Shown: positions 9,629 through 38,120 of the stretch, piece after piece
How the letters are laid out: every line of letters starts with the position of its first letter
Position numbering within the stretch: position 1 is the first letter of the stretch
Assembly: GCA_029882515.1 (NCBI GenBank)
Contig: JAOUKN010000002.1
Coordinates: forward strand, 1-47,149
Length of the DNA stretch: 47,149 nt
Direction: 5' to 3'
Source of the DNA: Candidatus Bathyarchaeota archaeon
GTDB taxonomy: Archaea > Thermoproteota > Bathyarchaeia > Bathyarchaeales > Bathyarchaeaceae
The notes under the pieces: generated by a model
Told to the model about the DNA's origin: nothing
Seen by the model: only the letters and a program-made list of their open reading frames with translations
Database searches by the model: none
Position numbers and translations under genes: made by a program

Positions 9629-9835
9629 CAAGTTACATCGCTTGCTGAAACTCAAGTCCAATAAACCTATGTGTACGAAATTTCTATCGCATTTCAGCCA
9701 TGCATCTTCTGAACATCCCCATGCCGAAAGAAAGCAAGGGGAGCGAGGCATGCACAACACGCTATGCTGAACAAGTGAGATTGGCGATCTCTCAGAAGTT
9801 TACGAGCTTAATATCATAGACACCGTACATGCGTA

Positions 9836-11230: not shown

Positions 11231-11250
11231 AATTACTACACCTTCCTCCT

Positions 11251-19320: not shown

Positions 19321-19344
19321 GAAGAAATCTTGAGGCATTTGAAC

Positions 19345-19743
19345 GTGCATGAATTTTCTGTGACTTCTCAAATTGTTGAGGCTATTTTAAAGGAAGCTGG
19401 GAAACATAACGCAAAGAGGGTCGTAGCTGTTCATTTGGACATAGGAAAACTCACGTTTTTAGGTTTAGAGCAAGTTCGGTTTTCCTATGAAGTACTTGTT
19501 AAGGGCACGATACTGGAAGGGTCAAAGCTCTACATCGAAGAAAAAGATGGCATTGTAAACTGTCGCAGTTGTGGGTATGAAGGAGGGTTCCAATACGAAG
19601 ATGACCCCATTTACCACATTCCTACACCTACACTCCGTTGTCCAAACTGTGGAGAAACAGTTGAGATCGAAGGAGGACGAGAATGTACAATAAGAGACAT
19701 GAAACTTCTCATAAGTGAGGACGACAAAACGGATGCAGATTAA
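19345..19743 (+). CDS. hypA: Hydrogenase nickel-insertion protein HypA
   Basis: GTG 19345 gives the canonical MHE N-terminus (MHEFSVTSQIVEAI). Zinc site CRSCG ... CPNCG. The ORF track start at 19330 is probably too early. Confidence 0.85.
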   Translation: MHEFSVTSQIVEAILKEAGKHNAKRVVAVHLDIGKLTFLGLEQVRFSYEVLVKGTILEGSKLYIEEKDGIVNCRSCGYEGGFQYEDDPIYHIPTPTLRCPNCGETVEIEGGRECTIRDMKLLISEDDKTDAD

Positions 19744-20809
19744 AGAACGGTTCAGGGACCCAACACTCGCAAAGAAAATTGCAGGTTACATCCGAAAACT
19801 GGCTCCTCCTTACGAAGTTAAGTTTTGTCATGTCTGCGGAACCCACGAGTGGACAATAACCCATTATGGACTTAGAGCACTTCTTCCAGAAACAGTTGAC
19901 GTAATCGCTGGACCAGGCTGTCCAGTTTGCGTTCTCCCTGCTGCTGAGATAGATGAGGCGATACAACTGGCGCTGAACGGAATAGCGGTTACAACTTTCG
20001 GCGATGTGATTCGAGTTCCTGGCTCAGAGAGTTCCCTTCAGGAGGCTAAGGCTTCTGGTGGAGACGTTAGAATCGTTTACAGTGTAAGAGATGCAGTGAA
20101 AATGGCTGAAAAGGAATCAGAAAAGGAGTTTGTGTTTTTTGCTATAGGTTTTGAGACAACAGCTCCCTTGACAGCCATAGAAATTCTCGACAAACAGCTT
20201 GAGAATCTTAGCTTTCTAGTTTCCCATAGGTTAATTCCTCCAGCCATGGAGCTATTGTTAGGTGTGGGAGACTTGCACATAGATGGCTTCATTGCGCCAG
20301 GACATGTATCAACCATTATTGGAGTGAAACCTTATGAGATATTTCCAAAAGCCTACCACATGCCAACCATAGTAGCAGGATTTGAACCCTTAGATGTTCT
20401 TTTTGCTGTTTCGATGCTTCTCAAACAGTTACGGACTGGGGAGGCAAGGTTGGAAAATGAGTATACTCGTTCCGTGGATTGGAAAGGTAATGTTAAGGCG
20501 CAGCAACTCATGGAGAAAGTGTTTGACGTCGTGGGTGGGCGTTGGAGAGGACTTGGGAAAATTCCGTTATCTGCATTAGCTTTGAAGGAAGAATTTATGG
20601 CTTATGATGCGCGAAAAAAGTATGGTATAAAGATTGAGCGTTCAAGAGACTTATTGCCTGGCTGTCTCTGCCATTTGGTTATGATTGGGAAGATTAAGCC
20701 CTCCGAATGTGGTCTCTTTATGAAGACTTGTAGACCAGAGTCGCCGAAAGGAGCCTGCATGGTTTCTATGGAAGGCACTTGTAGAATATGGGCGAGACAC
20801 AAGGCCTAG
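19733..20809 (+). CDS. hypD: Hydrogenase maturation protein HypD
   Basis: Contains CHVCGTHEW and GPGCPVCV motifs and a C-terminal Cys cluster. The likely start, ATG 19733 (MQIKERFRDP), overlaps the hypA end. Confidence 0.9.
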   Translation: MQIKERFRDPTLAKKIAGYIRKLAPPYEVKFCHVCGTHEWTITHYGLRALLPETVDVIAGPGCPVCVLPAAEIDEAIQLALNGIAVTTFGDVIRVPGSESSLQEAKASGGDVRIVYSVRDAVKMAEKESEKEFVFFAIGFETTAPLTAIEILDKQLENLSFLVSHRLIPPAMELLLGVGDLHIDGFIAPGHVSTIIGVKPYEIFPKAYHMPTIVAGFEPLDVLFAVSMLLKQLRTGEARLENEYTRSVDWKGNVKAQQLMEKVFDVVGGRWRGLGKIPLSALALKEEFMAYDARKKYGIKIERSRDLLPGCLCHLVMIGKIKPSECGLFMKTCRPESPKGACMVSMEGTCRIWARHKA

Positions 20810-20818
20810 TTGCTTGGT

Positions 20819-21865
20819 TTAACAGATCCTTGGAACTGGATCTCCTATTGGTGGTGCCAGTATTCTTTTTCCACCCACTTCGGTCTCCAGAGCGACTTCT
20901 CTAAATTGTTTTGTCGCTTCTCCTATTATCTGTGCATTTTTGCCTTCCTTTGTCTTCTTTAGTATTGACAGTATCTCTTCGGCTTTCTCATGGACCATCC
21001 CTATCAGTATTTTCCCTTCGTTCCCTATTTCGAGGGGATCAATACCCAGCATTTCGCATGCGGCTTTAACGTCTTCACGTATGGGTATCCTATCCTCTTG
21101 CACTAGTATACCGACATTGGACTTTTCACTCCACTCATTTAAGGCGTTGGCTAAACCGCCTCTTGTGGGGTCTTTCATCGATACTATTCCGCCCACACTC
21201 AGGAGTCGGATAATCAGCTTGTTTAGAGGCGTTACATCAGATTTGATTTGGCTTCCGAAATTGTAGCCTTCTTGCGCCGACAAAACAGCAAGCCCATGGT
21301 CTCCCACTGTGCCAGAAACTATCACTTTGTCGCCTTCTCGTAAATTGGAGTCAAGAATCCAACGGCTATTGAAAGAACGGTATTTTTTCACTTCTGCAAT
21401 ATTTCCTTCTAAGGCTTCATTTCTCTTGCCAATTCCAGATGTGTTGATGACACATCCGCTTAAATTTCCCTTTTCCACGACCTTTGTATCGCCAGTAATG
21501 ATGTAGGCACCTGCTTCTTTGCAGGTTTGTTTCATACTCTCGAGAATTCTTTCGAAGTCAGTTATTTGGAGTCCTTCTTCTAGGACGAAGCCGCAAGAAA
21601 GGGCTATCGGTTCTGCCCCCATCACCGCAATATCGTTTACCGTGCCTGCAACTGCCAATCTTCCAATGTCCCCACCCGGGAAAAAGATGGGCTTGACCGC
21701 GTGGGAATCCGACTTCAAAACAATGTCGCCGATTACGGCTGCATCATCTAATGCTTCCAGCGGAACCTCAGAGCCACTTCCACCCAGATGCGTTACGATA
21801 TGTTTCTTGATTAAGTCATGCATGATTGTTCCGCCAGCGCCATGAGCCATGGTGATCCTTTTCAA
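20819..21865 (-). CDS. hypE: Hydrogenase maturation carbamoyl dehydratase HypE
   Basis: 348 aa with a PurM-like fold pattern and the diagnostic C-terminal PRIC motif. TTG start is preceded by AGGAGG. Convergent with hypD. Confidence 0.95.
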   Translation of the reverse strand: MKRITMAHGAGGTIMHDLIKKHIVTHLGGSGSEVPLEALDDAAVIGDIVLKSDSHAVKPIFFPGGDIGRLAVAGTVNDIAVMGAEPIALSCGFVLEEGLQITDFERILESMKQTCKEAGAYIITGDTKVVEKGNLSGCVINTSGIGKRNEALEGNIAEVKKYRSFNSRWILDSNLREGDKVIVSGTVGDHGLAVLSAQEGYNFGSQIKSDVTPLNKLIIRLLSVGGIVSMKDPTRGGLANALNEWSEKSNVGILVQEDRIPIREDVKAACEMLGIDPLEIGNEGKILIGMVHEKAEEILSILKKTKEGKNAQIIGEATKQFREVALETEVGGKRILAPPIGDPVPRIC

Positions 21866-22021: not shown

Positions 22022-22287
22022 TCTTCTATCATACGTTTTTTCTCCATTTTCTTTTGGAAGATGAGGAGCCGAAGTTTTAGATTTCTTCTTGAGGGAGTAG
22101 TTTACAAATGTAAAGACTGATATGTGTCATAACAATGTTATGAAATGGTGGCAGAAAGAACTTAAAACATAAAGAATTTAAAACACAAACTCAAATTAAC
22201 TCCTTCCAACGACTGGAATCGAACCAAGCATGCAAGTCTGTAACATTCCCAGAATTTCTCAAACCCAGATTGCTGGAGAAAAATAGT

Positions 22288-23211
22288 ATGCCCATGAAAT
22301 TGGTAAAAACTGAGAGTGAAAATGAGCTCGAAGTTGAAAGAATTTTACATGCTAAACGATATTCCTTAACATTAGACAGGAACTTATGCGTAGGTTGTGA
22401 GATCTGCAAGACAATCTGTCCAAGAGAAGCCATTGAGATCAAAATTGTTCCGAAGGTAAACGGAGAAAAAGCAAAGCAGCCAATCATTGATGTTGATGAG
22501 CAGAAATGCCAGTACTGTGGAATCTGCAATACTCTTTGTCCCTTTGGCGCCCTAAAAGTAAGAGTAGATGGTGAACACGTGATTTCAGTAGTTAAAACTG
22601 AGAGCTTCCCTCAACTTATCCGCGACATTGAGGTTGACACAACCAAGTGCGATTTGGATTGTGTGGAATGTGAGAAGGCCTGTCCTTTGGAAATTATCGA
22701 GGTTAGTGTACGAACACCTGATGGTAAAGAGGTGTCAGATATTGCAAAGTCCAAAAAGAAGAATGTGTCAGTTCATGTTGACATTAAAACAGATTTATGT
22801 CCTTCCTGTCGGTTGTGTGAAATGCAATGTCCAGAAGGTGCTGTCCGTGTTCGCAAAATGTTCCACGGAGTTATGAAAATAAACCAAGAGAAATGTCCAG
22901 AAGGTTGCCAAGACTGCCTTGACGTTTGCCCCATCACAGGAGCCCTCTACTTAGGCGACAATGAGAAAGTGCACGTTAACGAGTTATACTGCATCTACTG
23001 CGGTGTTTGTAAACTTGTGTGCCCAGAAGAGGAAGCTCTAGAATTACAAAGAACCTCTGTGCATCATACACCAGTTCGTTCTGGCGCATGGAATAAGGCA
23101 CTGGAAAAATTAACATCCACAACAGAGATGACTAAGGAGTTGAGAGCAAAAGGCTCCATGAAAGCGCGAGGATCAGTTGAAAAACGACTTGCATATAAGG
23201 AGGTATCATAA
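22288..23211 (+). CDS. Polyferredoxin (six CxxCxxCxxxCP-type 4Fe-4S motifs)
   Basis: Six cluster-binding motifs counted by eye (CVGCEICKTICP, CQYCGICNTLCP, CDLDCVECEKACP, CPSCRLCEMQCP, CPEGCQDCLDVCP, CIYCGVCKLVCP). ATG 22288 follows GGAG. The stop directly abuts the hdrA start. Confidence 0.85.
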   Translation: MPMKLVKTESENELEVERILHAKRYSLTLDRNLCVGCEICKTICPREAIEIKIVPKVNGEKAKQPIIDVDEQKCQYCGICNTLCPFGALKVRVDGEHVISVVKTESFPQLIRDIEVDTTKCDLDCVECEKACPLEIIEVSVRTPDGKEVSDIAKSKKKNVSVHVDIKTDLCPSCRLCEMQCPEGAVRVRKMFHGVMKINQEKCPEGCQDCLDVCPITGALYLGDNEKVHVNELYCIYCGVCKLVCPEEEALELQRTSVHHTPVRSGAWNKALEKLTSTTEMTKELRAKGSMKARGSVEKRLAYKEVS

Positions 23212-25182
23212 GTGTCTGAAGAACCGCGAGTTGGAGTTTTCGTTTGCCACTGTGGACTTAACATAGCAGGAGTGATAGATGTAGAAGAAGTCACTGAATA
23301 CGCCAAAACGTTGCCTAATGTAGTCCTCGCCGTTCACAACCGATATATATGTACAGCTCCCGGACAAGCCGAAATTAGAACGGCAATAAAAGAGCACAAG
23401 TTAAATAGAGTTGTTGTTGCAGCCTGCTCACCACGCCTTCACGAATCTACATTCAGAAGATGTATCACAGAAATCGGGTTAAACCCCTACGTTCTTGAGA
23501 TGGCCAACATCCGAGAATTTTCTTCGTGGTGCCACCTAAGCACTCCCAGAGAAGCAACTAATGAGGCAAAAAAAATTGTAAAGATTGCAGTAGCCAAGGC
23601 TCGGCTACTTCAGGCACTCGAAACAATTGAATTCCCAGTAACCAATAAGGCTCTCATTATAGGTGGCGGAATTGCTGGAATAAGCGCCGCATTAGATCTT
23701 GCTGACATGGGCTTCAAAGTATATTTAGTCGAAAAGAGCGAAAGTATCGGAGGTCATATGGCCCAACTCGACAAGACCTTTCCGACCCTTGACTGCTCCA
23801 TCTGCATTGAAGGCCCAAAAATGGTGGATGTCTCTCGTCATCCGAATATCGAAATAATATCATACGCCAACATTCTCCACGTAGAAGGATTTGTTGGAAA
23901 CTTCAGAGTCAAAGTTCGAAAGAACCCACGATACGTAATTGCCGATAATTGTACAGGATGTGGCGAATGCCGAGATGTCTGCCCCATCGAATTTCCCAAC
24001 AAATGGGACTTGAATATGGGCGTTAGAAAGGCAATTTCACTCCCCTTCGATCAAGCGGTCCCACTTGTTTACACGATCAACATGGATCATTGCATCGAAT
24101 GCTACAAATGTGTTGATGTTTGCGGTGCCCGTCAAGCCATAAATTTCGACCAGCAACCTGAAGAAATCGAATTAAACGTAGGGGCAATCATCGTTGCGAT
24201 AGGCTTTGAAAGTTATCTACCATACACCGATCACCAGTACGGTTACGGAAAATACGATAATGTCATCACCGCATTGGAATTTGAGAGACTGATTCTGGCA
24301 GCAGGTCCGACCAGTGGAAAAGTCATTCGGGCTTCCGACGGTGAGAAACCTCATTCTATAGTCTTCATTCAGTGTGTTGGTTCGCGAGACGTTAACAAGT
24401 ACGAATATTGTTCTGGCTTCTGTTGCATGTACACTTTAAAGCACGCAGTTATGCTTAAGGAGAAGTATAAAGATGATATTCAAATTTACATCATCTACAC
24501 TGACATGCGTAGCGATTTTAAAGGATATGAAGAATTCTACAATAGAGCTCAGAAAGCTGGGGTTCATTTTGTACGAGTGAAACTGGAAAACAGGTCTGTA
24601 ACTGAAGATCCGGGAACCAAGAATCTTATTGTGCACGCTGAAACAGAAGGCGACCAACCAGTGGAGATAGCGGCTGAGATGGTGGTTCTGGCAAACGCAG
24701 CCATTCCAGTCCAAGACGCAGCAGATCTAGCGAAACTCCTAAACATTCCAATCGAAACAGACGGCTTTTTCGTAGAATGCCAGCCGAAGATTAGGCCTAG
24801 TGACACGGATATACCGGGAATATTCCTAGCGGGGGCCTGTCTAGGGTTGAAAGATATACCGTATAGTGTGGCACAAGGAAGTGGTGCAGCAGCCCAAGCA
24901 TCAACAATTCTGAGTAGGTCTACGTGGATTATCGAGCCCTTCATTGCAAAAGTGGATGAGGGCATCTGTAGTGGGTGCAAGATTTGTAAGTCTGTTTGTG
25001 ATTACAATGCCGTGCAAATCGAGAAAACCCACGAAAAGGAGTTGGCAAAAGTTATAGACGGTCTTTGCAGGGGATGTGGCACCTGCAGTGCAGCATGTCC
25101 TACGGGAGCTATAACAATGCCCCTTTATACCGATGCGCAAGTTATTGCGCAAGTCAGAGCAGCTCTGGAAGAGGTAATGTGA
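23212..25182 (+). CDS. hdrA: Heterodisulfide reductase subunit A-like flavoprotein (HdrA paralog 1)
   Basis: 656 aa with a GTG start 7 nt after AAGGAGGT. It has the N-terminal CHCG cluster motif, an FAD dinucleotide fold (IIGGGIAGISAALDLA), inserted and C-terminal ferredoxin motifs, and FIQCVGSRD. Confidence 0.9.
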   Translation: MSEEPRVGVFVCHCGLNIAGVIDVEEVTEYAKTLPNVVLAVHNRYICTAPGQAEIRTAIKEHKLNRVVVAACSPRLHESTFRRCITEIGLNPYVLEMANIREFSSWCHLSTPREATNEAKKIVKIAVAKARLLQALETIEFPVTNKALIIGGGIAGISAALDLADMGFKVYLVEKSESIGGHMAQLDKTFPTLDCSICIEGPKMVDVSRHPNIEIISYANILHVEGFVGNFRVKVRKNPRYVIADNCTGCGECRDVCPIEFPNKWDLNMGVRKAISLPFDQAVPLVYTINMDHCIECYKCVDVCGARQAINFDQQPEEIELNVGAIIVAIGFESYLPYTDHQYGYGKYDNVITALEFERLILAAGPTSGKVIRASDGEKPHSIVFIQCVGSRDVNKYEYCSGFCCMYTLKHAVMLKEKYKDDIQIYIIYTDMRSDFKGYEEFYNRAQKAGVHFVRVKLENRSVTEDPGTKNLIVHAETEGDQPVEIAAEMVVLANAAIPVQDAADLAKLLNIPIETDGFFVECQPKIRPSDTDIPGIFLAGACLGLKDIPYSVAQGSGAAAQASTILSRSTWIIEPFIAKVDEGICSGCKICKSVCDYNAVQIEKTHEKELAKVIDGLCRGCGTCSAACPTGAITMPLYTDAQVIAQVRAALEEVM

Positions 25183-25183
25183 C

Positions 25184-27676
25184 ATGGTACAAGATTCTCT
25201 TCAAGCTATAGAAGAGATACGAATCGGTGTATTCATCTGTTATTGCGGGCTTAATATCGGCGCTGTAGTAGACGTAGAGGATGTGGCAGATTACGCTCGC
25301 TCTCTGCCGAATGTAGTCTATGTGAAGACCAACCGGTACACATGTGCTGACCCGGGACAAGAAGAGATTAGGAAAGGAATAGCGGAGTACAAGTTAAACC
25401 GAGTGATTGTAGCTGCTTGTTCTCCAAGGATGCACGAGCCAACGTTTCGGCGAACCGTTTCGGAAGCTGGTATGAACCCGTTTCTCTTTGAGATGGCCAA
25501 CATCCGGGAGTTTTCGTCATGGTGTCATCCAAGCACACCAGAAGAGGCCACAAAAAAAGCTAAAGAAATTGTGAAAATGGCTGTTGCAAAGGTTAGATTG
25601 CTACAACCGCTTGACATCATCGAAGTTCCAGTTACCAATGAAGCGTTAGTAGTGGGCGGTGGGGTCGCTGGTGCAAGTGCAGCGTTGGCCCTTGCTGACA
25701 TGGGGTACAAAGTATACTTAGTTGACAAAGCTGAGACCATCGGGGGCCACGTGGCTCAACTGGGCAAAACGTTCCCGATGTTTGAGTGTTCAAACTGTCC
25801 ACAACAGAATCGTTGTCCACGATTCTCGTGTGTTGCTACGAGAGTAGGAGATGTTGCTACGCATCCAAATATCCAGATATTTACTTATTCTGAAGTTAAA
25901 GAGGTTGAAGGTGTTATTGGAAGCTATAAGGTCAAGGTCGTTAAGAACCCGAGATTTGTTATCGAGTCAAAGTGTTTGGGATACTGTAACATTTGTGAAG
26001 AAAAATGCCCTGTTCAAGTGTCAAATGAATTTGACGCACGTGTACATATGCGGAAGGCAATCTACATGCCATTCAACCAAGCTATACCTCTGGTCTACAG
26101 GATTGATAAAGAGAACTGTCTCTACTTCAAGGATGGTAGTTGCACTGAATGTAAAGATGTATGCGAAGCAGGCGCGATAAATTTTGGGCAAACACCCGAA
26201 GAGATCACACTTGAAGTAGGGACTATCGTAATTGCGACTGGATTCGACATTTACGAACCTTATGATTTAAAAGAATATGGATATGGGCAATATAGGAATG
26301 TGATAACTGAACTTGAACTTGAACGAATTTTGAACACGGGCACTCAACTTACAGGCGAACTCTTAAGGCCTTCAGACGGCAAAAAGCCCAACAGCCTAAC
26401 TTTCATTCAGTGTGTTGGTTCACGAGACGTTGACAAGTACGAGTATTGCTCCAGCTTCTGTTGCATGTTAACACTAAAGAACGCGATTTTGCTCAAAGAG
26501 AAGTACGGGGATGACCTACAAATTAATGTGCTTTACATGGATATGCGCACCAACAAGAAAGGGTACGAAGAGATCTTCAGAAGAGCCCAAAATATGGGAA
26601 TCAACTTCATACGAACAAAGCTTACCAATAGAAAGATTACAGAAAACCCGAAAACAAAAAGCTTGACTGTATATGCAGAAACAGAAGGCAACAATTCAGT
26701 GAAGATAACGACTGACATGGTAGTATTAGCAACAGCGGCGATTCCAAGTAAAGGGTCCGAAGACATAGCCAGAATCTTCAACATCTCCCGAGGAGCCGAC
26801 GGCTTCTTTATGGAAAGCCATCCAAAACTTAAGCCCCTCGACACAGCTGTGGATGGCACCTTTCTAGCTGGGGCCTGTCAGGGACCTAAAGACATCCCCT
26901 ACAGTGTGTCACAAGGAAGTGGAGCTGCATCCAGAGCTGCAACAATTCTTTCAAAGTCAACGTGGGAAATCGAACCTATCATTGCTGTTGTTAATCCTGA
27001 TGAATGTAGAAATGTCAAGACGAAGTGTGGCATTTGTTCACAAAGGTGTCCTTATGGTGCCATTAAAGCTCCTGAAGGGCAGCCAGCAGAAGTTGCTACT
27101 GCTATGTGTCATGGATGTGGCACTTGCGTTGCTGAATGTCCAGCTGACGCCATTACTCAAATGCATTTCACTGACGCTCAGATTTTTGCTCAGATCCGGG
27201 CTGCTTTGGAAGAAAATCCTGAGGATAAGATTCTGGCTTTTCTCTGTACCTGGTGTAGTTATGCGGGAGCTGATTTGGCTGGAACAAGTCGTTTCGAGTA
27301 TCCACCTACTATACGTCCCATTCGAGTCATGTGTTCCGGAAGGGTTGATAGAGACTTCGTTATGGAAGCCTTCAGACTTGGCGCAGGAATGGTGCTGGTT
27401 GCTGCTTGCCATTTACCCTATGATTGCCACTACATTTCTGGCAACTGGAAAATGAAAACAAGAATGGAAGCCTTAGCGGGCATGCTGGAAAAACTAGGTC
27501 TTAGCCCAGAAAGGTTCAAAGTGGACTATGTATCTGCCGCCGAAGGCGTCAAATTCGCTGAACTCGTAAACGACATGACAGAACAAATGCACACACTGGG
27601 CAAGGACAAGATAAACACGGAGAACGGAAAATTAAAGCCTATACTGGAAAAAATGCTGTCACGAAAACGAAAGTAG
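25184..27676 (+). CDS. hdrA: HdrA paralog 2 fused to a C-terminal MvhD-like domain
   Basis: 830 aa. HdrA-like throughout the first ~660 aa. The C-terminal ~140 aa (KILAFLCTWCSYAGADLAG ... IRVMCSGRVD ... VAACHLPYDCHY) match the MvhD (methyl-viologen-reducing hydrogenase delta) pattern. Confidence 0.9.
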   Translation: MVQDSLQAIEEIRIGVFICYCGLNIGAVVDVEDVADYARSLPNVVYVKTNRYTCADPGQEEIRKGIAEYKLNRVIVAACSPRMHEPTFRRTVSEAGMNPFLFEMANIREFSSWCHPSTPEEATKKAKEIVKMAVAKVRLLQPLDIIEVPVTNEALVVGGGVAGASAALALADMGYKVYLVDKAETIGGHVAQLGKTFPMFECSNCPQQNRCPRFSCVATRVGDVATHPNIQIFTYSEVKEVEGVIGSYKVKVVKNPRFVIESKCLGYCNICEEKCPVQVSNEFDARVHMRKAIYMPFNQAIPLVYRIDKENCLYFKDGSCTECKDVCEAGAINFGQTPEEITLEVGTIVIATGFDIYEPYDLKEYGYGQYRNVITELELERILNTGTQLTGELLRPSDGKKPNSLTFIQCVGSRDVDKYEYCSSFCCMLTLKNAILLKEKYGDDLQINVLYMDMRTNKKGYEEIFRRAQNMGINFIRTKLTNRKITENPKTKSLTVYAETEGNNSVKITTDMVVLATAAIPSKGSEDIARIFNISRGADGFFMESHPKLKPLDTAVDGTFLAGACQGPKDIPYSVSQGSGAASRAATILSKSTWEIEPIIAVVNPDECRNVKTKCGICSQRCPYGAIKAPEGQPAEVATAMCHGCGTCVAECPADAITQMHFTDAQIFAQIRAALEENPEDKILAFLCTWCSYAGADLAGTSRFEYPPTIRPIRVMCSGRVDRDFVMEAFRLGAGMVLVAACHLPYDCHYISGNWKMKTRMEALAGMLEKLGLSPERFKVDYVSAAEGVKFAELVNDMTEQMHTLGKDKINTENGKLKPILEKMLSRKRK

Positions 27677-29206: not shown

Positions 29207-29995
29207 TTATTTGAGGGCTTTGCGTGCGTGGGTGATGTAGCCCGTGTGCCCGGTCATCAAGGTTTGCGGTCGAGTTTTTCCTCTTTCAATCTGCATGCCA
29301 CGCATAAGACATTCAACAGTTTCAATGGCTACAAACCCGTTTTCTTTTAGGGCTTCAACTGTCTTCACAACCTGATCAATAGTCGGACTGAAGGAGACAA
29401 GTACGCCGCTTCCTTTTAGGGCTGCGTAGGCGTGAGGAATGACCAGCCATGGAGTTGCGAGGTCTAGAACTACTGCGTCGACTTCTGTCTCATCGATGCC
29501 TTCTGTTATGTCTTTGTTCTTGACAGTAACATACTCTGAAACTCCTGCTCTCTTCAGGTTTTTCAGCGCCGACTCCATGAACTTCGTTCTAACTTCGTAG
29601 CTGTACACATGACCTGTGGGGCGGACATGACAGGCGAGAGATGTGGTTAAGGCGCCAGTTCCAGTTCCCGCCTCAACAACTCTGTTGCCTGGACCAGCAT
29701 CGCTGAACATAAGGATGAGAGATATGTCCTTTGGATACGTTATCTGGGTCTTTCTCTGCATCTTAAAAATATGGTCTCGTAACGTGGGTTTCAAGGCTAC
29801 GAATTCTATGTTCATGCTGCTGGCTATGCGAGTCCCGTACTGTTTTCCAACCAACTCTTCTAGTTGCACAAATCCTTTATGTGTGTGGAAACTCTTCTCC
29901 TGCTCAACTTTAACCAGGTAAGTTCTCTTCCGATCTAAGTAGAGAAGAACGTCATTACCTTCGTGGATTTCAGACAAACTGGACTCACACACCAT
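29207..29995 (-). CDS. trmI: tRNA (adenine-N1)-methyltransferase TrmI/Gcd14 family
   Basis: 262 aa with a SAM-binding motif (VVEAGTGTGALT) and the Gcd14-like N-terminal beta domain pattern. Confidence 0.8.
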   Translation of the reverse strand: MVCESSLSEIHEGNDVLLYLDRKRTYLVKVEQEKSFHTHKGFVQLEELVGKQYGTRIASSMNIEFVALKPTLRDHIFKMQRKTQITYPKDISLILMFSDAGPGNRVVEAGTGTGALTTSLACHVRPTGHVYSYEVRTKFMESALKNLKRAGVSEYVTVKNKDITEGIDETEVDAVVLDLATPWLVIPHAYAALKGSGVLVSFSPTIDQVVKTVEALKENGFVAIETVECLMRGMQIERGKTRPQTLMTGHTGYITHARKALK

Positions 29996-30050: not shown

Positions 30051-31544
30051 TTAGGGTTCGTAACGGAACGGATGCCTGGCCGACTCCTTCCTCTCCATGA
30101 GCTCCTCCGAAGTAGGTCTCGCCTCTAACGCCCTACGAATCGCCCAAACCATCGCCTTGAAGTTGTTTATCATCACTCGTTTTGGATTAGACGCAGTCGG
30201 ATGAACAAAGACGTTCGCGATCATAACCAACTCTTCTAAGGCATCTTTAGGCAGCAAACCGTCTTCCACGCTGTCCACAACAGCCTTGGCGACCCCACTC
30301 ATCGCATGCACATACACAAATTCAGCCTGACGCTCAGTTCTAATGGTGACTGTGGGGACCAATAAAGTGTCAGGCTTGACTGTTTTGCTTCCTAATCTTA
30401 CAAGTTGGGGGTCATGACCAGTTCTAGGATTTGCCAAAGTTTCCCGAAACGTCCTACCAACTGGACCATTCCTCAACCCTATGAGAAGATCAACGTGAGC
30501 AACTTCAGCTGTGCTGGGTGATGCAAAGGCTTCGCCAACTTTCAAAGAGAAATCACGTATTTTCATGGGGGTCTGAGGTGTAGCCCCAGCAAACATACTT
30601 TTAGTCACAAGATTCGGCTTAATTTCCAATTGGAGAGTTTTGCTGGAAAGTTTCCCTAACCACTCCAAACTCAATCTAAGTAGCTCTTCATCCTCATAAC
30701 GAAAGACACCCCCAGTCATAAGGGGCTTTCTCGCGGTTCCAACATCCAGCTCCATCATTCTTAATCCAGCTTTGACCGCAAGGCCTCCACCATGCCTAGT
30801 AATAATTCTTGCCAAAGTCTGAACCTTCCTTTGAAGACTACGGGCCTCCTCCAGATCGTGCTTTTCAACCAAGTCGTACAGTCGTAACCAAAGGTCAGGT
30901 ATCAGATTCGCAGAAGCTAATATCAGCCCATCAGCACCGGCGGCAAGTGCAGCCACCGCAATCTCATCATGCCCACAGATAATTGAAATCTTTCCATAAA
31001 CCTTCTCAAATAAAGCCATCATATAAGGCATGTTACCGCTGCTGTCCTTAATCCCAACTATATTATCGATTTCAGATAGGCCTTCCACGACCCACCAAGG
31101 GATCTCAACACCTGTGACCTGTGGAATATTGTAAAGAATGATTGGAAGGTCTGCAGCCTCCGCAATTTTGTCGTAGTGTTCATAGATCTCCTTGTCTGTG
31201 GGCTTGAAGTAGAAAGGCGAGACTACTAGGGCAGCGGTTGCACCTGCATCCTCAGCATGTTTGGTAAACTCTATGGCGTTCGTTGTTCTGGCGTCTCCAG
31301 TTCCAGCAATAACCGGCACCCGACCGTTAACCTCATCTATAGTAACTTCGATAACCTTCATCCTTTCTTCCACGGTCATGTTGACAAATTCGCCTGTTGT
31401 CCCACATGGAACCACTCCAGTGACGCCTTTCTCAATGACAAAATCTACCAGTCGCCTTAAACTCTCCTCATCAACCTCAAAGTTTCTTTCAAATGGTGTT
31501 ACGAGAGCGGGAATCACTCCCTTTAACCAAAATTTCTTCTCCAT
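30051..31544 (-). CDS. Fusion protein: DapA/DHDPS-NAL family class I aldolase plus formaldehyde-activating enzyme (Fae) domain
   Basis: Preferred start ATG 31544 (MEKKFWLKGVIPALVTPF). Aldolase motifs: CGTTGEF, LYNIPQ, VGIKDSSG (Schiff-base Lys context). The C-terminal ~171 aa (about nt 30054-30566) align by eye to Fae: VGEAF...EVAHVDLLIG, KPDTLLVPTVTI, VFVHPTA, ARHPF. Confidence 0.85.
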   Translation of the reverse strand: MEKKFWLKGVIPALVTPFERNFEVDEESLRRLVDFVIEKGVTGVVPCGTTGEFVNMTVEERMKVIEVTIDEVNGRVPVIAGTGDARTTNAIEFTKHAEDAGATAALVVSPFYFKPTDKEIYEHYDKIAEAADLPIILYNIPQVTGVEIPWWVVEGLSEIDNIVGIKDSSGNMPYMMALFEKVYGKISIICGHDEIAVAALAAGADGLILASANLIPDLWLRLYDLVEKHDLEEARSLQRKVQTLARIITRHGGGLAVKAGLRMMELDVGTARKPLMTGGVFRYEDEELLRLSLEWLGKLSSKTLQLEIKPNLVTKSMFAGATPQTPMKIRDFSLKVGEAFASPSTAEVAHVDLLIGLRNGPVGRTFRETLANPRTGHDPQLVRLGSKTVKPDTLLVPTVTIRTERQAEFVYVHAMSGVAKAVVDSVEDGLLPKDALEELVMIANVFVHPTASNPKRVMINNFKAMVWAIRRALEARPTSEELMERKESARHPFRYEP

Positions 31545-31545
31545 C

Positions 31546-33000
31546 CTAACCCCTCCACACTCGGAAAGCGTTTGAAAGAGCGAACTTGACTGCATCGTAA
31601 GTGTTTGTAAACAATATCTGTCTGTTTAGGGCTTCAGGATTAACAACAACCTTAACTATAATTGCATAATTCTCTAAAACTTCCTTTGAAATCACGTTTT
31701 CCTCAACTGTGTCTGAAACTGCCTTTCCAACGGCTGATTGAACTGGGCCGTACACTATGCTCGCTTGCCGTAGACTCTCAATTTTGATTGCTGGAACAAT
31801 AAGCGTAATCGGTTTGGCAGAGAGGTTTGGCTCTAAAATAGCTGTTAGGGCTTCGTGGCCAGGCTCAGGATTTGCTAAGGCTCTTGCCCACACATAACCC
31901 ACTGCACTTTGCTTTGGACCAGCCAGCAGAAAGACGTGCAACTTTTCTCTTCCTTCTCCAACTGAGGCTTCACTTACCAAGAGCTTTGACTGTTCGATGT
32001 CTTTGGCTGTGATCCCCAAATCTTGAAATCTATCCTCTAAGCGTTTTGGGAGTTCGGTTTTGACTTTAATCTGTTTTGCCGTTATTTTTCCAAGTTTTTC
32101 AAGTTCCATCCGTATCTCTTCTTTCACTTCCCATGCCAAAACTCCGCCACTTACCAGTGGTCTCCTTACTTTGCCAACATTAACGCTCATCATCTTTAAG
32201 GCTGCTTTAACGGCTACGGCTCCGCCATGTCTGCAGAAGATTCTTGCCAACTTTTGGGCACTCATCTGGATTTTTCTAGCAGAATCAACATCTCCTTTTT
32301 GAACAGCCTTATACAGTTTGACCCATATATCCGGGATAACATTCGCCGAAGCTAATATTGCTCCTTTGGCTCCAGCTGCTAATGCCGGCAAAACCACTTC
32401 GTCATGACCACAAACAATGGTGATCTTATCTCCAACGAAGCTTAGCAACTCGAGCATGTAGGGAAGGTGTCCACTGCTATCTTTTAGCCCTGTAATGTTG
32501 TCTATCCGAGCCAAGTCTTCGACGACTTCTCTGCTCAGAAATCCACCAGTACACTGCGGAATATTATATAACACGATTGGTATGTCTGCAGCTTTGGTAA
32601 CCTCATAGAAATGTTGATACGCACCTTTGTCTGCCGGACGCAAATAATAAGGGGTGACGACCAAAGTGGCGTCTGCTCCGACATCCTTAGCGTGTCTACA
32701 TAACTCTATTGTTTCTATAGTTGAGCTCGCACCAGTTCCAGCAATCACAGGAACTCTGCCGTTAACCTCATCAATAACCGTCTCCAATGCCCTCTTCCGT
32801 TCTTCTTTTGACATGTAAACAAATTCTCCAGTCGTACCAACGGGTACAACGCCATTTACTTCCCATTCAATCATGAAATTGACTAGATATCTCAAGGCTT
32901 CTTCATCAATTTCCCCTTCATTCTTGAATGGAGTAACTAATGCAGGAAAAATTCCTTCTAAATTGAACCTCTTTATCCTTATCACCACCAGAATAGACAA
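31546..33000 (-). CDS. Paralogous fusion: DapA-family aldolase plus a divergent Fae-like domain
   Basis: 484 aa. Aldolase motifs are intact (VGTTGEF, LYNIPQ, TGLKDSSG). The C-terminal ~147 aa are Fae-like but divergent: LHVFLLAG replaces AHxDLxxG, and there is no terminal HPF motif. One nt separates its stop from the next gene's ATG. Confidence 0.8.
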   Translation of the reverse strand: MSILVVIRIKRFNLEGIFPALVTPFKNEGEIDEEALRYLVNFMIEWEVNGVVPVGTTGEFVYMSKEERKRALETVIDEVNGRVPVIAGTGASSTIETIELCRHAKDVGADATLVVTPYYLRPADKGAYQHFYEVTKAADIPIVLYNIPQCTGGFLSREVVEDLARIDNITGLKDSSGHLPYMLELLSFVGDKITIVCGHDEVVLPALAAGAKGAILASANVIPDIWVKLYKAVQKGDVDSARKIQMSAQKLARIFCRHGGAVAVKAALKMMSVNVGKVRRPLVSGGVLAWEVKEEIRMELEKLGKITAKQIKVKTELPKRLEDRFQDLGITAKDIEQSKLLVSEASVGEGREKLHVFLLAGPKQSAVGYVWARALANPEPGHEALTAILEPNLSAKPITLIVPAIKIESLRQASIVYGPVQSAVGKAVSDTVEENVISKEVLENYAIIVKVVVNPEALNRQILFTNTYDAVKFALSNAFRVWRG

Positions 33001-33220: not shown

Positions 33221-34660
33221 TTGGTGTTATCCATGTCTGTTGAGAAGGGATATGCTCTTGATTGGATTGCGAGAAATAGGGATAAGATTGTTGAGATCAG
33301 TGATAAGGTGTGGGAGCATGCCGAGCTAGGTTTAATCGAGTTCAAGTCTTCAGCGCTTCTAGCAGATGAATTGAAAAAACAGGGGTTTAAGGTTGAACGT
33401 GGAATTGCGGATATGCCTACAGCCTTCTTAGCAACTTGGGGTGCAGGAAAACCAGTCATCGGGATAATGGGCGAATATGATGCCCTACCCGGGCTATCAC
33501 AGAAAAAGGTTCCATCAAACAAAACTTTGCAACCGGGTGCCCCAGGGCACGGATGCGGGCACAATATTCATGGGACCAGCGGCATGGCAGCAGCAATAGC
33601 AGTAAGAATCGCTATGGAGAAACACAAGATAAAGGGTACAATCAGATTCTTTGGATGTCCGGCTGAGGAGAACTTCTCAGGCAAGGTATACATGGTTAGA
33701 GAGGGGTATTTCAGTGACGTTGATGCGGTGATCAGTCATCATCCAAGCACTATGAATGCAGCTGACCTAAGGAGCAGTTTGGCTGTCAACTCGATTAAGT
33801 TTCATTTCTATGGTAAGGCTTCCCATGCCGGTGCTTCCCCCGAGCAAGGCAGAAGCGCATTGGATGCAGTAGAATTAATGAACACAGGTGTAAACTACCT
33901 TAGGGAACACGTAATCCAAGATGCAAGAATCCACTACGTAATTGAAAAGGGCGGAGACCAGCCAAATATTGTGCCCCCATACGCCAGAAGCTGGTACTAC
34001 GTAAGAGCGCCAGAAAGAGATCAATTGGAATTCATATACAATTGGATACTCGAGATAGCAAAAGGAGCAGCAATCATGACAAGAACTAAGGTGAGAACAG
34101 AGTTTCTTGAAGGAAGTTACAATGTAATTCCCAATAAAGCTATCTCAGAGCTAATTGTTAAAAATATGCGTGAAATCGGGCTTCCCGAATATAGTGATGA
34201 AGATTTGAAGTTTGCAAAAGAGATTGCCAAGACAATTACACTAGAAATGAAGATTGCTCAGTTGAAGAAATCTAAGCGCCCAGGATGGGAGAAACTAGTG
34301 GACAAATTGATGGATGATGAAATTCCTGATCCTTGGGGTGAAGGTGAAGTGAGTCATGGTAGCACTGATGTAGCTGACGTGAGTTGGCAGACACCCACTG
34401 TAGAATTTACCACTGCAACTTGGGTTCTAGGTACACCTGGGCATTCATGGCAAAACGTAGCGCAAAGTGCAGTTGGACTTGGACATAATTCTCTCATCTT
34501 TTCTGCGAAGGTAATGGCTGCTACCTCCTTAGATTTCTTGATGAATGAAGAGATTCTTAACGAGGCAAAGAAGGAACATAGACAAAGAGTAGGAAACAAA
34601 AAGTATAGATCACCAATACCCCCTGAAAATAGACCGCCTCTTGACATATGGGAGAAATGA
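33221..34660 (+). CDS. M20 family amidohydrolase (AbgB-like)
   Basis: 479 aa with motifs GIMGEYDALPGL, GHGCGHN, FFGCPAEE and HHPS, typical of the M20D/AbgB-like subfamily. The true start may be ATG 33233. Confidence 0.8.
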   Translation: MVLSMSVEKGYALDWIARNRDKIVEISDKVWEHAELGLIEFKSSALLADELKKQGFKVERGIADMPTAFLATWGAGKPVIGIMGEYDALPGLSQKKVPSNKTLQPGAPGHGCGHNIHGTSGMAAAIAVRIAMEKHKIKGTIRFFGCPAEENFSGKVYMVREGYFSDVDAVISHHPSTMNAADLRSSLAVNSIKFHFYGKASHAGASPEQGRSALDAVELMNTGVNYLREHVIQDARIHYVIEKGGDQPNIVPPYARSWYYVRAPERDQLEFIYNWILEIAKGAAIMTRTKVRTEFLEGSYNVIPNKAISELIVKNMREIGLPEYSDEDLKFAKEIAKTITLEMKIAQLKKSKRPGWEKLVDKLMDDEIPDPWGEGEVSHGSTDVADVSWQTPTVEFTTATWVLGTPGHSWQNVAQSAVGLGHNSLIFSAKVMAATSLDFLMNEEILNEAKKEHRQRVGNKKYRSPIPPENRPPLDIWEK

Positions 34661-34813: not shown

Positions 34814-36097
34814 TTACTTTTTGTGCAGGTTCCAAGCAGCGATGAACGTTAGGCCTCGTTCTGTAAGCGCTTTGGCTGTTCTGTTCAGTGAATCATGTTT
34901 GTCTAGATAATTTGTTAAGAGCTTTGGCATTAACTCTTTTTCAATAATTTCTTCCTTAGGAATGAAGTAGTCCAAAATATCTGATGGGTGTTCTCGAATT
35001 TTTTCAACCTGAGGAAGTCCACCCTCATGTTTGGCACTGATGTTTTTGACATGGTCTGAGATCTTCAGAAGTTCCTCGATTCGGTCGTATGGTTGCCTGA
35101 CAATACTCTTGTAAGTTTCCACAATATGATGTTCGATGCGGATAATGTCTTCGAAGTTGAAGTTCTCTCGTGTATAGGCTGATAGTTCAATTGTTTTGTT
35201 ATTGGCAGAGTTGGAGAGATTGAAGCCAATGAGAGGTGTTGTGCCGTCATCTCGGCTAAAGAGTTTCGCAGTCATGAGAGTCCACAAACATGAATAAGGA
35301 TTATCGTTGCCCACGAAAACCGAAATCTTGAATTCTATGTCAATTCCCAGTTTATGCAGCCAATACCCGAGCATAACAGTGCCTGTGTTTATGTTCAATA
35401 CCTGCTGAACGCCATACTCTGTATGGTAATAAAGAAATTCATCAACCCACTTCAAGGCGTATTCATTTGGTACTCCTACGCCTCCGAAATAGCCTGTGAT
35501 AGTTTCAGGGCCTCCTAAATGAACGTTAATTGGTTGACCATCTGGTCCGAGCATTGTCCCTTTTGTGTCTAGTGTTTGCACGTAAGAGGCTCCGATGATT
35601 TGCATTGCTGCTGCAAACGCAAGGATGTCATCATCTTGAACTTGCTCTTTCATCGAACGGACACGAATATAGCGGGCGGGCATAAGGTCCTGTTGGGTAA
35701 TAGCCTTCTTCGCTTCTTCTATGAGCCATGGGAAAAAGTTGCAGGCACTTATCTCGAGGGTTACGGCGAATGTTTCATCAAACTTTGTAGAATTAGCCTT
35801 GTCTCCTAAAACTCTCTTGAGATATTCCGGGATGTTAATGAAAACGCTTTTGTCTCGTTGTTCAATCAACCATTCGAGGTCTTTCACATAAGGAGAATTT
35901 TTGTCTTTGAGTCGAGTCATGATGTTTTCGAGCTTGCTGGCTTCCTTCGCCTTACGGTTAATTTCGTCAACACCACCGTATTTCTCAACAGATTCTAGTA
36001 GGCCGTTTACAAGGGGGTTGTCTTCGCTTAGAAGAAGATTGTTGATCTCCTTCAGATTTTCTTCTCTGATTCTTAATCTATCTCTGAGACTGCTCAT
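34814..36097 (-). CDS. Hypothetical protein with no recognisable family (427 aa)
   Basis: Long ORF with non-repetitive, enzyme-like composition. It has a helical N-terminal ~100 aa and no TM segments. I could not match any motif. Confidence 0.7.
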   Translation of the reverse strand: MSSLRDRLRIREENLKEINNLLLSEDNPLVNGLLESVEKYGGVDEINRKAKEASKLENIMTRLKDKNSPYVKDLEWLIEQRDKSVFINIPEYLKRVLGDKANSTKFDETFAVTLEISACNFFPWLIEEAKKAITQQDLMPARYIRVRSMKEQVQDDDILAFAAAMQIIGASYVQTLDTKGTMLGPDGQPINVHLGGPETITGYFGGVGVPNEYALKWVDEFLYYHTEYGVQQVLNINTGTVMLGYWLHKLGIDIEFKISVFVGNDNPYSCLWTLMTAKLFSRDDGTTPLIGFNLSNSANNKTIELSAYTRENFNFEDIIRIEHHIVETYKSIVRQPYDRIEELLKISDHVKNISAKHEGGLPQVEKIREHPSDILDYFIPKEEIIEKELMPKLLTNYLDKHDSLNRTAKALTERGLTFIAAWNLHKK

Positions 36098-36464: not shown

Positions 36465-38120
36465 ATGGTGGAAAACATGCCTCCTAAATTAGTTAGGTTC
36501 CTTCTTTCATTTGCAGTCCCCGCAAAGGACCGCAAAAAACGCTTCACAGAGAAGATGGAAAAGGGAGCTATTTTATGCTTTGCAGAGTTAGAGCGGAAGA
36601 AAGGTAAAGGGCGCATTCTGAAAAGAACGACAGAGGAGATAGCCTTTATTGCTCAAGCTTGTTACCCAACGTGGTTGGTTCCATGGAAGAGAGGGACTCT
36701 TATTTTTGACGGACTCGGTATCATGGCACACACCTTTTCTTATGCCACGTTACCCGACGTCAGAACGTTTATCACTAATATTGATGGAGATTCCATGAAT
36801 CATGAAGCGTACCTTGCCTTTCTTTCCAGCAATCTTAACTACTTTCAAGGGTTCACAAGAGAAGAAGGGAAAACCGTAAAAGGTCTTGTTACAAGTCCAG
36901 ATTTTGTCGGAGATTTTGCTTCCTATCTTTCTTCAGCCAAAAAAATCAATGGATCAGCACCAAATAAAATTCTTCTATCTCCAACAATGGATGAAGCAGA
37001 GGCCTCTATTTCCATAAAAGAGATTTCAAGCCTTAGAACAAGGTTAACACAAGATATTGCAGATTTGCATGGAGTCATGCGCTTGCTAAATAGCACTGCA
37101 GAAAGATATGTAAAGAGTTTTGAAAAAGAAATTGGGAAAGTTAGAAAGGAATTTGACAAAAGAATAGAAGTCCTTAAACCTTCAGTTATGAAAAAGATTC
37201 GAAAGATTCAGAAAGAATATGACAAGAAAATATCACTATATTCTGGAGACATAGGGGGTCAGCTCCATCTTCTCCATCAAGAATACATCAAACTTGAGAA
37301 AGAAAAAGAAAGAAAGAGTGAGAACATTAACCGTTGTGAAGTAGAAATAAAGTCCTGTAGGCTTCGCAAAGATGGGGCTGGTGAACTTCGATGGAGACAA
37401 GACATAGAAAATTACAGAAGGGAGATTTCGGCTTTAGACAAGAAACTCAAAGATGTCCAACAAAAAGTAAAGGACACAGAATCGATGAAAAAAGATGAAA
37501 TATCCAAAATCAGAGCAAAGTGTGACAAAGAAGTCGACAAGATCATGGATGACGTGCGGAACGTAGAGGCTTCACGTGATGCCAAGATTCACATAATGCA
37601 GAAAGAAATGGAGTCTCTTCAGGATATGACCTCTCAGGTCGTGGAACAGATCAATAAACTGGTTAAATTGAAGAGGCAAACCATAAGCAATCTTGATCAG
37701 GTTGGTCTGGCTAAAAAACGGAGAACCTATGCCCTAACGTACATACCCTTCTACCTTATCTGCTATCAAGCAGGGCCGAAGAGAAGATACGTCATATATC
37801 CTCCATCCATTGCGGGAAGCATGGGAATTTTGACAAAATTCAAAGGGGTTTTTGGGGTGGCAAAGACAAAGTCCCTTTTGCAGTTTCGTTCAGGGCCCAT
37901 AACCAGTCTCATCAGCCAGATCATAATGTTGTTGGAGAAGAATCCTGTGTTTGAAAAGGAAATGTATGATGCGGGAACTGAATCTAATATTTTGCGCACG
38001 AATGAATTGAAGGAACACTTAAGACAGGGATTGAGAGAATTGAAAGATGAAGGGTGGATCTCAGAAAGCGAGCTTGAAGTGTTCACTGCCCCTCTAGCAA
38101 AAGTTCAGATGAGGCAGTGA
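36465..38120 (+). CDS. Hypothetical coiled-coil protein (551 aa)
   Basis: N-terminal globular part (~160 aa), a Lys/Glu-rich heptad-like central region of about 230 aa (KKIRKIQKEYDKKI ..., KLKDVQQKVKDTESMKKDE ...), and a C-terminal globular part (YIPFYLICYQAGPKRRYVIYPPS ...). No family recognised. Confidence 0.7.
   Translation: MVENMPPKLVRFLLSFAVPAKDRKKRFTEKMEKGAILCFAELERKKGKGRILKRTTEEIAFIAQACYPTWLVPWKRGTLIFDGLGIMAHTFSYATLPDVRTFITNIDGDSMNHEAYLAFLSSNLNYFQGFTREEGKTVKGLVTSPDFVGDFASYLSSAKKINGSAPNKILLSPTMDEAEASISIKEISSLRTRLTQDIADLHGVMRLLNSTAERYVKSFEKEIGKVRKEFDKRIEVLKPSVMKKIRKIQKEYDKKISLYSGDIGGQLHLLHQEYIKLEKEKERKSENINRCEVEIKSCRLRKDGAGELRWRQDIENYRREISALDKKLKDVQQKVKDTESMKKDEISKIRAKCDKEVDKIMDDVRNVEASRDAKIHIMQKEMESLQDMTSQVVEQINKLVKLKRQTISNLDQVGLAKKRRTYALTYIPFYLICYQAGPKRRYVIYPPSIAGSMGILTKFKGVFGVAKTKSLLQFRSGPITSLISQIIMLLEKNPVFEKEMYDAGTESNILRTNELKEHLRQGLRELKDEGWISESELEVFTAPLAKVQMRQ

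Follow-up and report, generated by a model that had tools for sequence, protein, structure and literature searches.

Tandem aldolase–Fae fusion genes in a Bathyarchaeota contig

The stretch of DNA analysed here, 47,149 nucleotides (nt) of contig JAOUKN010000002.1 from the Candidatus Bathyarchaeota archaeon assembly GCA_029882515.1 (hereafter the window), carries two adjoining minus-strand genes, each of which fuses an aldolase domain of the dihydrodipicolinate synthase (DHDPS) family to a C-terminal formaldehyde-activating enzyme (Fae) domain. We refer to the upstream fusion gene as U and the downstream one as D; positions are those of the window unless a locus label is given. The list of open reading frames (ORFs) places the two genes at 30051–31595 and 31546–33000, and they comprise the following features:

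31546–33000, minus strand: U-type fusion gene, about 479–484 amino acids (aa), the length depending on the start codon
31542–31548, minus strand: U/D junction, with the U stop codon TAG at 31546–31548, 1 nt, and the most plausible D start codon, ATG, at 31542–31544
30051–31544, minus strand: D-type fusion gene, 497 aa, aldolase plus Fae (Pfam, NCBIfam, PDB alignments and motif tables)
30717–31526, minus strand: aldolase domain of D, residues 7–276
30066–30539, minus strand: Fae domain of D, residues 336–493

U could start with TTG at 33000 or with GTG at either 32988 or 32985. GGAGGGG, a Shine–Dalgarno-like sequence, precedes the start codon of D, and the arrangement of the junction suggests translational coupling of the two genes. 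The closest relatives of U, D and the neighbouring genes are found in metagenome-assembled genomes (MAGs) of Bathyarchaeia. The original prediction, made from the letters of the sequence, had described two same-strand genes with a stop and a start codon 1 nt apart, each joining an aldolase to a C-terminal Fae domain. The ORF coordinates bear out this arrangement, and profile searches with Pfam and NCBIfam match both domains in both genes, with scores well outside what chance would give. The motifs quoted at the time, namely GTTGE, YNIP and xKDSSG in the aldolase, the Fae motifs of D and the degenerate Fae motif of U, are all present as described.

The aldolase domains

Both aldolase domains match the Pfam family DHDPS (PF00701), with E values of 8e-82 for D and 4e-81 for U, and the D domain aligns to the DHDPS structure 3pud at E 5.2e-58 (PDB). 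D carries the motifs GTTGE, YNIPQV and GIKDSSG and retains Thr49/Thr50, Tyr112, Tyr138 and the Schiff-base Lys166 (31047–31049); the equivalent motifs in U are GTTGE, YNIPQC and GLKDSSG, with Thr56/57, Tyr145 and the Schiff-base Lys173 all present. Across 96 aligned fusion proteins, numbered according to E. coli DapA, Thr44, Thr45, Tyr133 and Lys161 are kept in 89–100%, and Tyr107 is mostly kept. Position 138 is occupied by C, V, A, F or T and by Arg in 0 of the 96 fusions; its equivalents in the window are Val143 in D (31116–31118) and Cys150 in U. In DHDPS, Arg138 binds the carboxylate of aspartate semialdehyde. Since this arginine is never kept, a carboxylate-free aldehyde such as formaldehyde is a plausible partner. 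The DHDPS motif GDD reads GHDE in the fusions. Profiles for N-acetylneuraminate lyase score below their cut-offs (NF003164, 190/194 bits against 281; TIGR00683, 164/162 bits against 382).

No dapB or other lysine-pathway gene occurs among the genes of the window, and none appears in the 25 commonest of the 100 Pfam families found in 132 genes flanking the fusion elsewhere, although absence from a neighbourhood is weak evidence. With Arg138 missing, GHDE in place of GDD and no lysine genes nearby, the database label '4-hydroxy-tetrahydrodipicolinate synthase' is probably wrong. The sequence resembles that of the lysine-pathway enzyme and probably belongs to a different one; a true DapA is unlikely.

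In single-copy members of the family (S), position 138 is Cys in 90% of enzymes, and the combination of Tyr107 and Cys138 defines what we call the S-like aldolase state. This state is kept by D in most Chloroflexota pairs and by U in Thorarchaeota, a lineage-specific asymmetry; in the window, Tyr107 is present in both copies and Cys138 in U only. The catalytic residues of the aldolase are 100% conserved within the U clade. Among the fusion loci that we fetched (L001–L088), the D copy of the Thorarchaeota locus L088 (7025–8473) has Ser in place of the Schiff-base Lys and Phe at position 138. The D aldolase of this lineage may be catalytically dead.

Complementary residue losses in the Fae domains

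The Pfam Fae profile (PF08714; cut-off 27 bits) matches D with an E value of 1.9e-42 and 145.4 bits over profile positions 1–158 of 159, and U with an E value of 3.3e-37 and 128.4 bits over positions 2–138 of 159. The U match ends at profile position 138; U is therefore C-terminally truncated. Both copies exceed the cut-off of 118 bits for the NCBIfam equivalog-domain model one_C_fae (TIGR03126), with 157.8 bits for D and 132.3 bits for U, and the D domain aligns to the Fae structure 1y5y at E 2e-25 (PDB). D carries EVAHVDLLIG, KPDTLL and ARHPF; His350 (30495–30497) corresponds to Fae His22, Asp352 is present, and His491-Pro-Phe forms the C-terminal arm. The PNL loop is deleted from D, and its GP.Q motif reads VHAM. 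U reads EKLHVFLLAG, in which the His is present and Phe replaces Asp24; it has no HPF, is missing its last ~20 residues, and keeps LEPNL and GPVQ.

These differences recur across the family. We compared the Fae domains of 42 S, 27 D and 27 U proteins, with M. extorquens Fae as reference, and considered two sets of residues. Set 1 comprises Glu10, Glu18, Ala20, His21, Asp23, Phe118, His120, Asn133 and the C-terminal His-Pro-Phe 163–165; it is kept in 93–100% of S and 89–100% of D domains and in 0–59% of U domains, in which the HPF tail is deleted. Set 2 comprises Leu51, Pro57-Asn58, Arg77, Ala79, Gly84-Pro85 and Gln87; it is kept in about 90–98% of S and 74–100% of U domains, and in D at 0–48% or not at all where the loop is deleted. 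Leu59, within the set 2 loop, is present in 100% of U, deleted in D and present in 48% of S. The equivalent of His22 is kept in only 15% of the U clade, though it is present in the U of the window.

His21 and Gln87, as numbered in the PDB chain, are Fae His22 and Gln88. In the Fae structure that Acharya and co-workers described in 2005, methylene-tetrahydromethanopterin (methylene-H4MPT) is said to lie in a cleft between adjacent subunits; His22 is reportedly the acid catalyst, and Gln88 and the C-terminal arm are reported to rearrange upon cofactor binding. Because each copy keeps just one of two complementary residue sets, the pattern suggests that D and U form a heteromer with composite Fae sites. 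Its simplest reading would be that an interface site of homo-oligomeric S-type enzymes has been divided between two paralogues. The original prediction had cast D and U as a possible catalytic plus non-catalytic pair, with the Fae hallmarks kept downstream and lost upstream. The motif tables agree with the latter description, and U has indeed lost much of set 1; D, however, has lost the PNL loop, Arg77, Gly84-Pro85 and Gln87, all of which U keeps. A division into an active and an inactive copy oversimplifies the pair; the two copies are complementary.

Distribution and clades of the fusion

In a protein search, full-length DHDPS+Fae proteins made up more than 100 clusters with an identity of 53% or above, and those with a name are called only 'DapA' or 'formaldehyde-activating enzyme'. 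Scanning one genome per species gave at least 579 confirmed fusion matches; the best 80 of these come from Bathyarchaeia, Promethearchaeota (Loki), Thorarchaeota, Thermoplasmata, many Anaerolineae/Chloroflexota and Myxococcota. The fusion also occurs in Baldrarchaeia, Atabeyarchaeia and one genome labelled Methanomassiliicoccales. Complete genomes with the fusion include CP147779 (Atabeyarchaeia), OY970072 (Bathyarchaeia) and CP070739 (Thermoplasmata). A full-text literature search pairing Fae with DHDPS/DapA names found no publication on the architecture. A large survey of Bathyarchaeia reports the H4MPT-dependent Wood–Ljungdahl pathway and 'fae' in most members (PMC10321748), and a paper on Atabeyarchaeia mentions Fae-HPS only (PMC11291895).

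Identity matrices and a neighbour-joining tree resolve three clades, S, U and D. The S clade contains single-copy proteins of Bathyarchaeia, Loki and Atabeyarchaeia in which every Fae motif is kept. The main U and main D clades each mix archaea and bacteria, and the U and D proteins of Thorarchaeota branch deeply. Across phyla, D proteins share 54–65% identity with one another and U proteins 49–57%, whereas D and U share 41–48% even within one genome; the pair thus appears to be old and to travel together. Of the 27 scored pairs, 26 have U immediately upstream of D; in the remaining locus, L004, the two are 3.8 kb apart. U and D would appear, from these comparisons, to be ancient paralogues of a bifunctional enzyme.

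A conserved partner gene

Six loci of distant homologues encode a second recurring protein next to the fusion, of ~312 aa in five loci and of 427 aa in one; neither has a Pfam match. The 427-aa protein shares 71% identity with the product of a window ORF:

34814–36097, minus strand: A2 protein, 427 aa, function unassigned, conserved genomic partner of the fusion genes

We name the 427-aa family A2 and the 312-aa family A1, and screened the 88 fetched loci for both with hidden Markov models (HMMs). A2 is present in the window, in L006 and in loci of the range L010–L077. All 17 Loki loci have A2 directly upstream of the fusion and in the same orientation. In Bathyarchaeia, one or the other adjoins the fusion in 21 of 28 loci (A2 in 19, mostly divergent; A1 in two). 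The order A1 + U + D is found in Thermoplasmata, Baldrarchaeia and some Chloroflexota and Bathyarchaeia, and A1 is near the fusion in Myxococcota. The typical Bathyarchaeia arrangement consists of a divergent A2, a single-copy fusion and a tRNA methyltransferase gene (TrmI), and the window reads A2, an M20 amidohydrolase gene, U, D, TrmI.

A2 has no Pfam, NCBIfam or PDB match by sequence or profile, and A1 has no Pfam match at E ≤ 10 and no PDB match by single sequence or profile. An exhaustive representative search yielded 505 relatives of A2, most of them fragmentary, and led to no annotated family. Homology between A1 and A2 is weak (hhalign probability 71–84%, E 4e-5 to 8e-6), and the two share the strand-end motifs EIS, FK[IV]S, FN, [ED]xH and K.E.G. 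Copies of A1 (L008 5494–6426, L003 5588–6529, L007 5628–6566, L004 253–1203 and L001 5321–6259) are 60–75% identical across Asgard archaea, Thermoplasmata and Chloroflexota. Among the Bathyarchaeia matches listed, members of A1 and A2 are at least 79–83% identical, for A2 at least 79% over more than 100 clusters; A2 is 59–67% identical between Bathyarchaeia and Lokiarchaeia. Constraint of this strength is more in keeping with a core function than with a peripheral role.

An AlphaFold2 (AF2) model of A2 built from a diverse alignment (pLDDT 89.9, pTM 0.89) predicts a bundle of helices at the N terminus and, after it, a (beta/alpha)8 barrel. Foldseek returned only loose TIM-barrel matches for this model (TM score 0.3–0.46), led by class II fructose-bisphosphate aldolases, DAHP synthase and MTHFR. 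The match to the class II fructose-bisphosphate aldolases is weak (TM 0.33–0.46, root-mean-square deviation >9 Å), and the model points to no close solved relative. The AF2 model of A1 is poor (pLDDT 57), and its Foldseek matches, generic TIM barrels, are for that reason merely suggestive.

Proposed function and alternatives

Starting from the observed domain identities, residue patterns, clades and gene linkage, we infer substrates, a hand-over of formaldehyde, a heteromer and a role for the partner. We propose, with a little less than even confidence, that the fusion couples a pyruvate aldolase to a Fae domain exchanging formaldehyde with a pterin, that D and U act as a heteromer, and that the TIM-barrel protein is a partner enzyme. 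The N-terminal domains would be class I (Schiff-base) pyruvate aldolases derived from DHDPS; a small carboxylate-free aldehyde is the probable partner substrate, as the residue that binds aspartate semialdehyde has been lost. The C-terminal Fae domains would load formaldehyde onto a reduced pterin, which in archaea is H4MPT, to give the methylene-pterin, or would run the reverse reaction. The net reaction, in either direction, would couple pyruvate and a pterin-bound one-carbon (C1) unit to a 4-hydroxy-2-oxo acid, of which the simplest is 4-hydroxy-2-oxobutanoate. Free formaldehyde would be passed between the fused domains, in parallel to archaeal Fae-Hps. The Fae site would be built across the D/U interface, and the single-copy relatives, which have both residue sets, would act as homo-oligomers. 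The TIM-barrel partner (34814–36097) would make or consume the oxo-acid.

Several observations weigh against this proposal. The DapA model TIGR00674 scores 244 and 254 bits, above its trusted cut-off of 206 (NCBIfam). The best solved structures are genuine DHDPS (3pud at 5e-58 and the M. jannaschii enzyme 2yxg at 7e-55), as are all of the top 60 PDB matches. The Asp-Glu of GHDE resembles the sugar-binding motif GxDE of N-acetylneuraminate lyase and would argue for an aldehyde that is hydroxylated and of larger size than formaldehyde. DHDPS forms tetramers and Fae pentamers, a mismatch of symmetry. Chloroflexota and Myxococcota, in which the fusion is common, are not known to make H4MPT. No H4MPT, folate, C1 or Wood–Ljungdahl genes are found in the window, nor do C1/H4MPT genes feature in the 25 commonest Pfam families of the flanking genes. 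Finally, the HMM search of the 88 loci found no A1 or A2 adjoining the fusion in Thorarchaeota and many Chloroflexota.

Part of this evidence is shared with an explanation that we regard as somewhat unlikely, in which the substrate of the aldolase is a larger 2-keto-3-deoxy or 4-hydroxy-2-oxo acid derived from sugar acids or amino acids, and the Fae-like domain has been recruited for another aldehyde, for tetrahydrofolate or another amine, or as a scaffold. The likeness of GHDE to GxDE of neuraminate lyase-type enzymes, the presence of the fusion in Chloroflexota and Myxococcota and the lack of C1-pathway genes among the commonest flanking families would all suit such a role, as would the loose recurrence of M20, M28 and M24 peptidases in the neighbourhood and the predicted resemblance, through weak matches, of the partner to class II sugar-phosphate aldolases. 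However, His22, Asp24 and the HPF arm are retained in 89–100% of the S and D Fae domains, which together with scores above the Fae equivalog-domain cut-off argues for retained Fae chemistry, and the replacement of the charged Arg138 by Cys or Val is no less suited to a small apolar partner than to a sugar.

A working DapA for lysine or diaminopimelate synthesis, with Fae as an independent activity or an appendage for regulation or oligomerisation, appears improbable. It would account for the TIGR00674 scores, the run of DHDPS structures, the intact catalytic Lys, Tyr and Thr, and the ArgE/DapE-family M20 deacylases found ~1 kb away in seven Thorarchaeota-type loci. Yet Arg138 is absent from 96 of 96 fusions, the commonest Pfam families of the flanking genes include no dapB or lysine gene, and the constant neighbour is an unannotated TIM-barrel protein and no enzyme of the diaminopimelate pathway; strict conservation of the Fae motifs and their complementary split would also be left unexplained. 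That U is a decaying duplicate (a pseudo-enzyme) without a role of its own, leaving D to work alone, is very improbable: the degenerate His/Asp motif and missing C-terminal arm of its Fae domain would fit, but U forms an old clade of its own, 49–57% identical across Bathyarchaeia, Baldrarchaeia, Thermoplasmata and Chloroflexota, lies directly upstream of D in 26 of 27 pairs, has fully conserved aldolase catalytic residues and the only Cys138 of the window pair, and keeps at 74–100% the PNL loop, Arg77 and GP.Q, exactly what D has lost.

The pyruvate–formaldehyde reading can be extended to a metabolic role. Here, the fusion, as a single copy or a U+D heteromer, and the TIM-barrel enzyme would form a natural and widespread C1 + C3 → C4 route. 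Methylene-H4MPT supplied by the Wood–Ljungdahl pathway would yield formaldehyde that stays bound to the enzyme and is joined to pyruvate, giving 4-hydroxy-2-oxobutanoate for homoserine, threonine and methionine or for some other essential product; in Bathyarchaeia, Asgard archaea and some Chloroflexota, the route would belong to core metabolism. We consider this extended version unlikely as it stands. A PanB-like role in ketopantoate synthesis was also considered and is not favoured. The archaea said to lack PanB are the classical methanogens, and the named relatives include no methanogen of a classical order, only a Methanomassiliicoccales MAG.

Relation to known systems

The closest analogue of the proposed system is archaeal Fae-Hps (NF009833), in which Fae is likewise joined to a C–C lyase with formaldehyde as its product or substrate; H4MPT-using archaea carry both systems. 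In D and U, the match to NF009833 is confined to the Fae part (117 and 119 bits against a cut-off of 274; profile positions 2–161 of 392). Hps depends on a metal and has a fold of the orotidine 5'-phosphate decarboxylase type, whereas the partner here is a class I pyruvate aldolase with the DHDPS fold. Fae is C-terminal here and N-terminal in Fae-Hps, and the present fusion occurs as complementary paralogue pairs and is linked to an unannotated TIM-barrel gene, not to genes of the ribulose monophosphate pathway. The fusion would represent the principle of Fae-Hps, Fae plus a formaldehyde-linked lyase, in a new form.

With DapA/DHDPS (EC 4.3.3.7) the aldolase domain shares its fold, Lys161, Tyr133, Thr44/45 and mostly Tyr107, as well as its best sequence and PDB matches; the fusions differ in having no Arg138, GHDE for GDD, an appended Fae domain of ~160 residues and no lysine-gene context. 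A parallel to the logic of a Fae-coupled 2-oxo-acid aldolase is provided by PanB (ketopantoate hydroxymethyltransferase), which moves a pterin-bound methylene onto C3 of a 2-oxo acid. PanB differs in its unrelated fold, metal dependence, tetrahydrofolate donor and 2-oxoisovalerate substrate, and no sequence relationship to it was found.

We know of no dedicated natural enzyme for the reaction pyruvate + formaldehyde ⇌ 4-hydroxy-2-oxobutanoate. The E. coli enzyme RhmA is a metal-dependent (class II) aldolase. The condensation of pyruvate and formaldehyde to 4-hydroxy-2-oxobutanoate is documented as a promiscuous activity of RhmA, and is the same chemistry, the HAL reaction of the synthetic homoserine cycle, as that proposed for the fusion (PMC8879981). 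Given this documented side reaction, the proposed chemistry would be feasible. RhmA catalyses it as a side activity with no pterin coupling. The product is called a 'non-native metabolite' in the E. coli host (PMC8879981). The link of the fusion to the Wood–Ljungdahl pathway rests on the published Bathyarchaeia surveys (PMC10321748).

Other genes of the neighbourhood

Two further genes flank the fusion pair in the window:

33221–34660, plus strand: M20 amidohydrolase, between A2 and U (TIGR01891, 267 bits)
29207–29995, minus strand: TrmI/GCD14 tRNA methyltransferase, directly downstream of D (Pfam)

The M20-like gene had been noticed earlier as a divergent neighbour of the pair, as it is. It was rejected as a conserved partner, since L009, the closest relative, is the only one of the 88 loci that also has it; it is probably a lineage-specific insertion outside the fusion module. 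TrmI is found in 22 of the fusion loci, all from Bathyarchaeia, and is likely to be functionally unrelated.

Turning to the loci of other lineages, the Anaerolineales locus L035 encodes threonine synthase (NF006050, 598 bits) immediately after the U+D pair, followed by adenosylhomocysteinase (L035 8517–9686 and 10158–11423). The related loci L065, L066 and L070 also have adenosylhomocysteinase just downstream of the pair, and a threonine synthase homologue lies ~5 kb away in L066 and L070. This is a weak hint of a connection to homoserine, threonine and methionine, and a hint only, as no more than a few related Anaerolineales genomes show this arrangement.

Other genes recur more loosely. The ArgE/DapE-family M20 deacylases lie ~1 kb downstream of U+D in L075, L081, L083–L085, L087 and L088 (five Thorarchaeota and two 'uncultured archaeon' genomes; the L081 copy, at 9397–10542, scores 237 bits with TIGR01910). 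M28 or M24 peptidases are found near the fusion in L001, L003 and L004, so that metallopeptidases as a class recur loosely. A small nitroreductase-family protein is encoded within ~2 kb of the fusion in 16 loci of Atabeyarchaeia, Chloroflexota and Loki (L001, L004/L005, L030 and L046–L067, e.g. L067 9217–9801), and a peroxiredoxin (AhpC/TSA) recurs near the fusion in Loki.

Elsewhere in the window, a plus-strand gene at 36465–38120, divergent from A2, encodes a 551-aa protein with only weak Pfam matches that suggest a coiled coil. A plus-strand set at 22270–27676 encodes a polyferredoxin and then two HdrA-like flavoproteins, the second of which (25184–27676) has a C-terminal MvhD/FlpD domain; judged by these domains, the set looks like an electron-bifurcation module. 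It adjoins a hyp maturation cluster: HypF (15262–17553), HypB-like (18640–19320), HypA (19330–19743), HypD (19715–20809) and HypE-like (20819–21865). A tandem pair of TldD/PmbA metallopeptidase genes lies at 9836–12690 on the minus strand.

Significance

The formaldehyde-aldolase interpretation put forward in the original prediction remains plausible and is partly strengthened, though unproven; it is corrected with respect to the nature of the pair and to which neighbouring gene is relevant. In the subsurface, Bathyarchaeia and Asgard archaea rank among the most abundant organisms, and metabolic reconstructions count 'fae' and 'dapA' in them by automatic annotation (PMC10321748). Where such a gene is really the fusion, both functions may be misassigned; if our proposal is right, the protein would not simply detoxify formaldehyde and would have no part in the lysine pathway. 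U and D have lost complementary Fae residues, as if an active site at an interface had been divided between paralogues, and the partner families of 427 aa and 312 aa are strongly conserved yet without any annotation.

If the proposal holds, an enzyme acting on pyruvate and a pterin-bound C1 unit would constitute a new link between the Wood–Ljungdahl pathway and central carbon metabolism. It would also offer a natural template for synthetic methylotrophy, in the form of a dedicated pyruvate–formaldehyde aldolase that never releases free formaldehyde, and a true C1 + C3 → C4 route would be the natural counterpart of the aldolase step of the engineered 'homoserine cycle'. There is a realistic chance that the fusion marks a C1-to-C4 reaction not described so far, in uncultured lineages of very high abundance.

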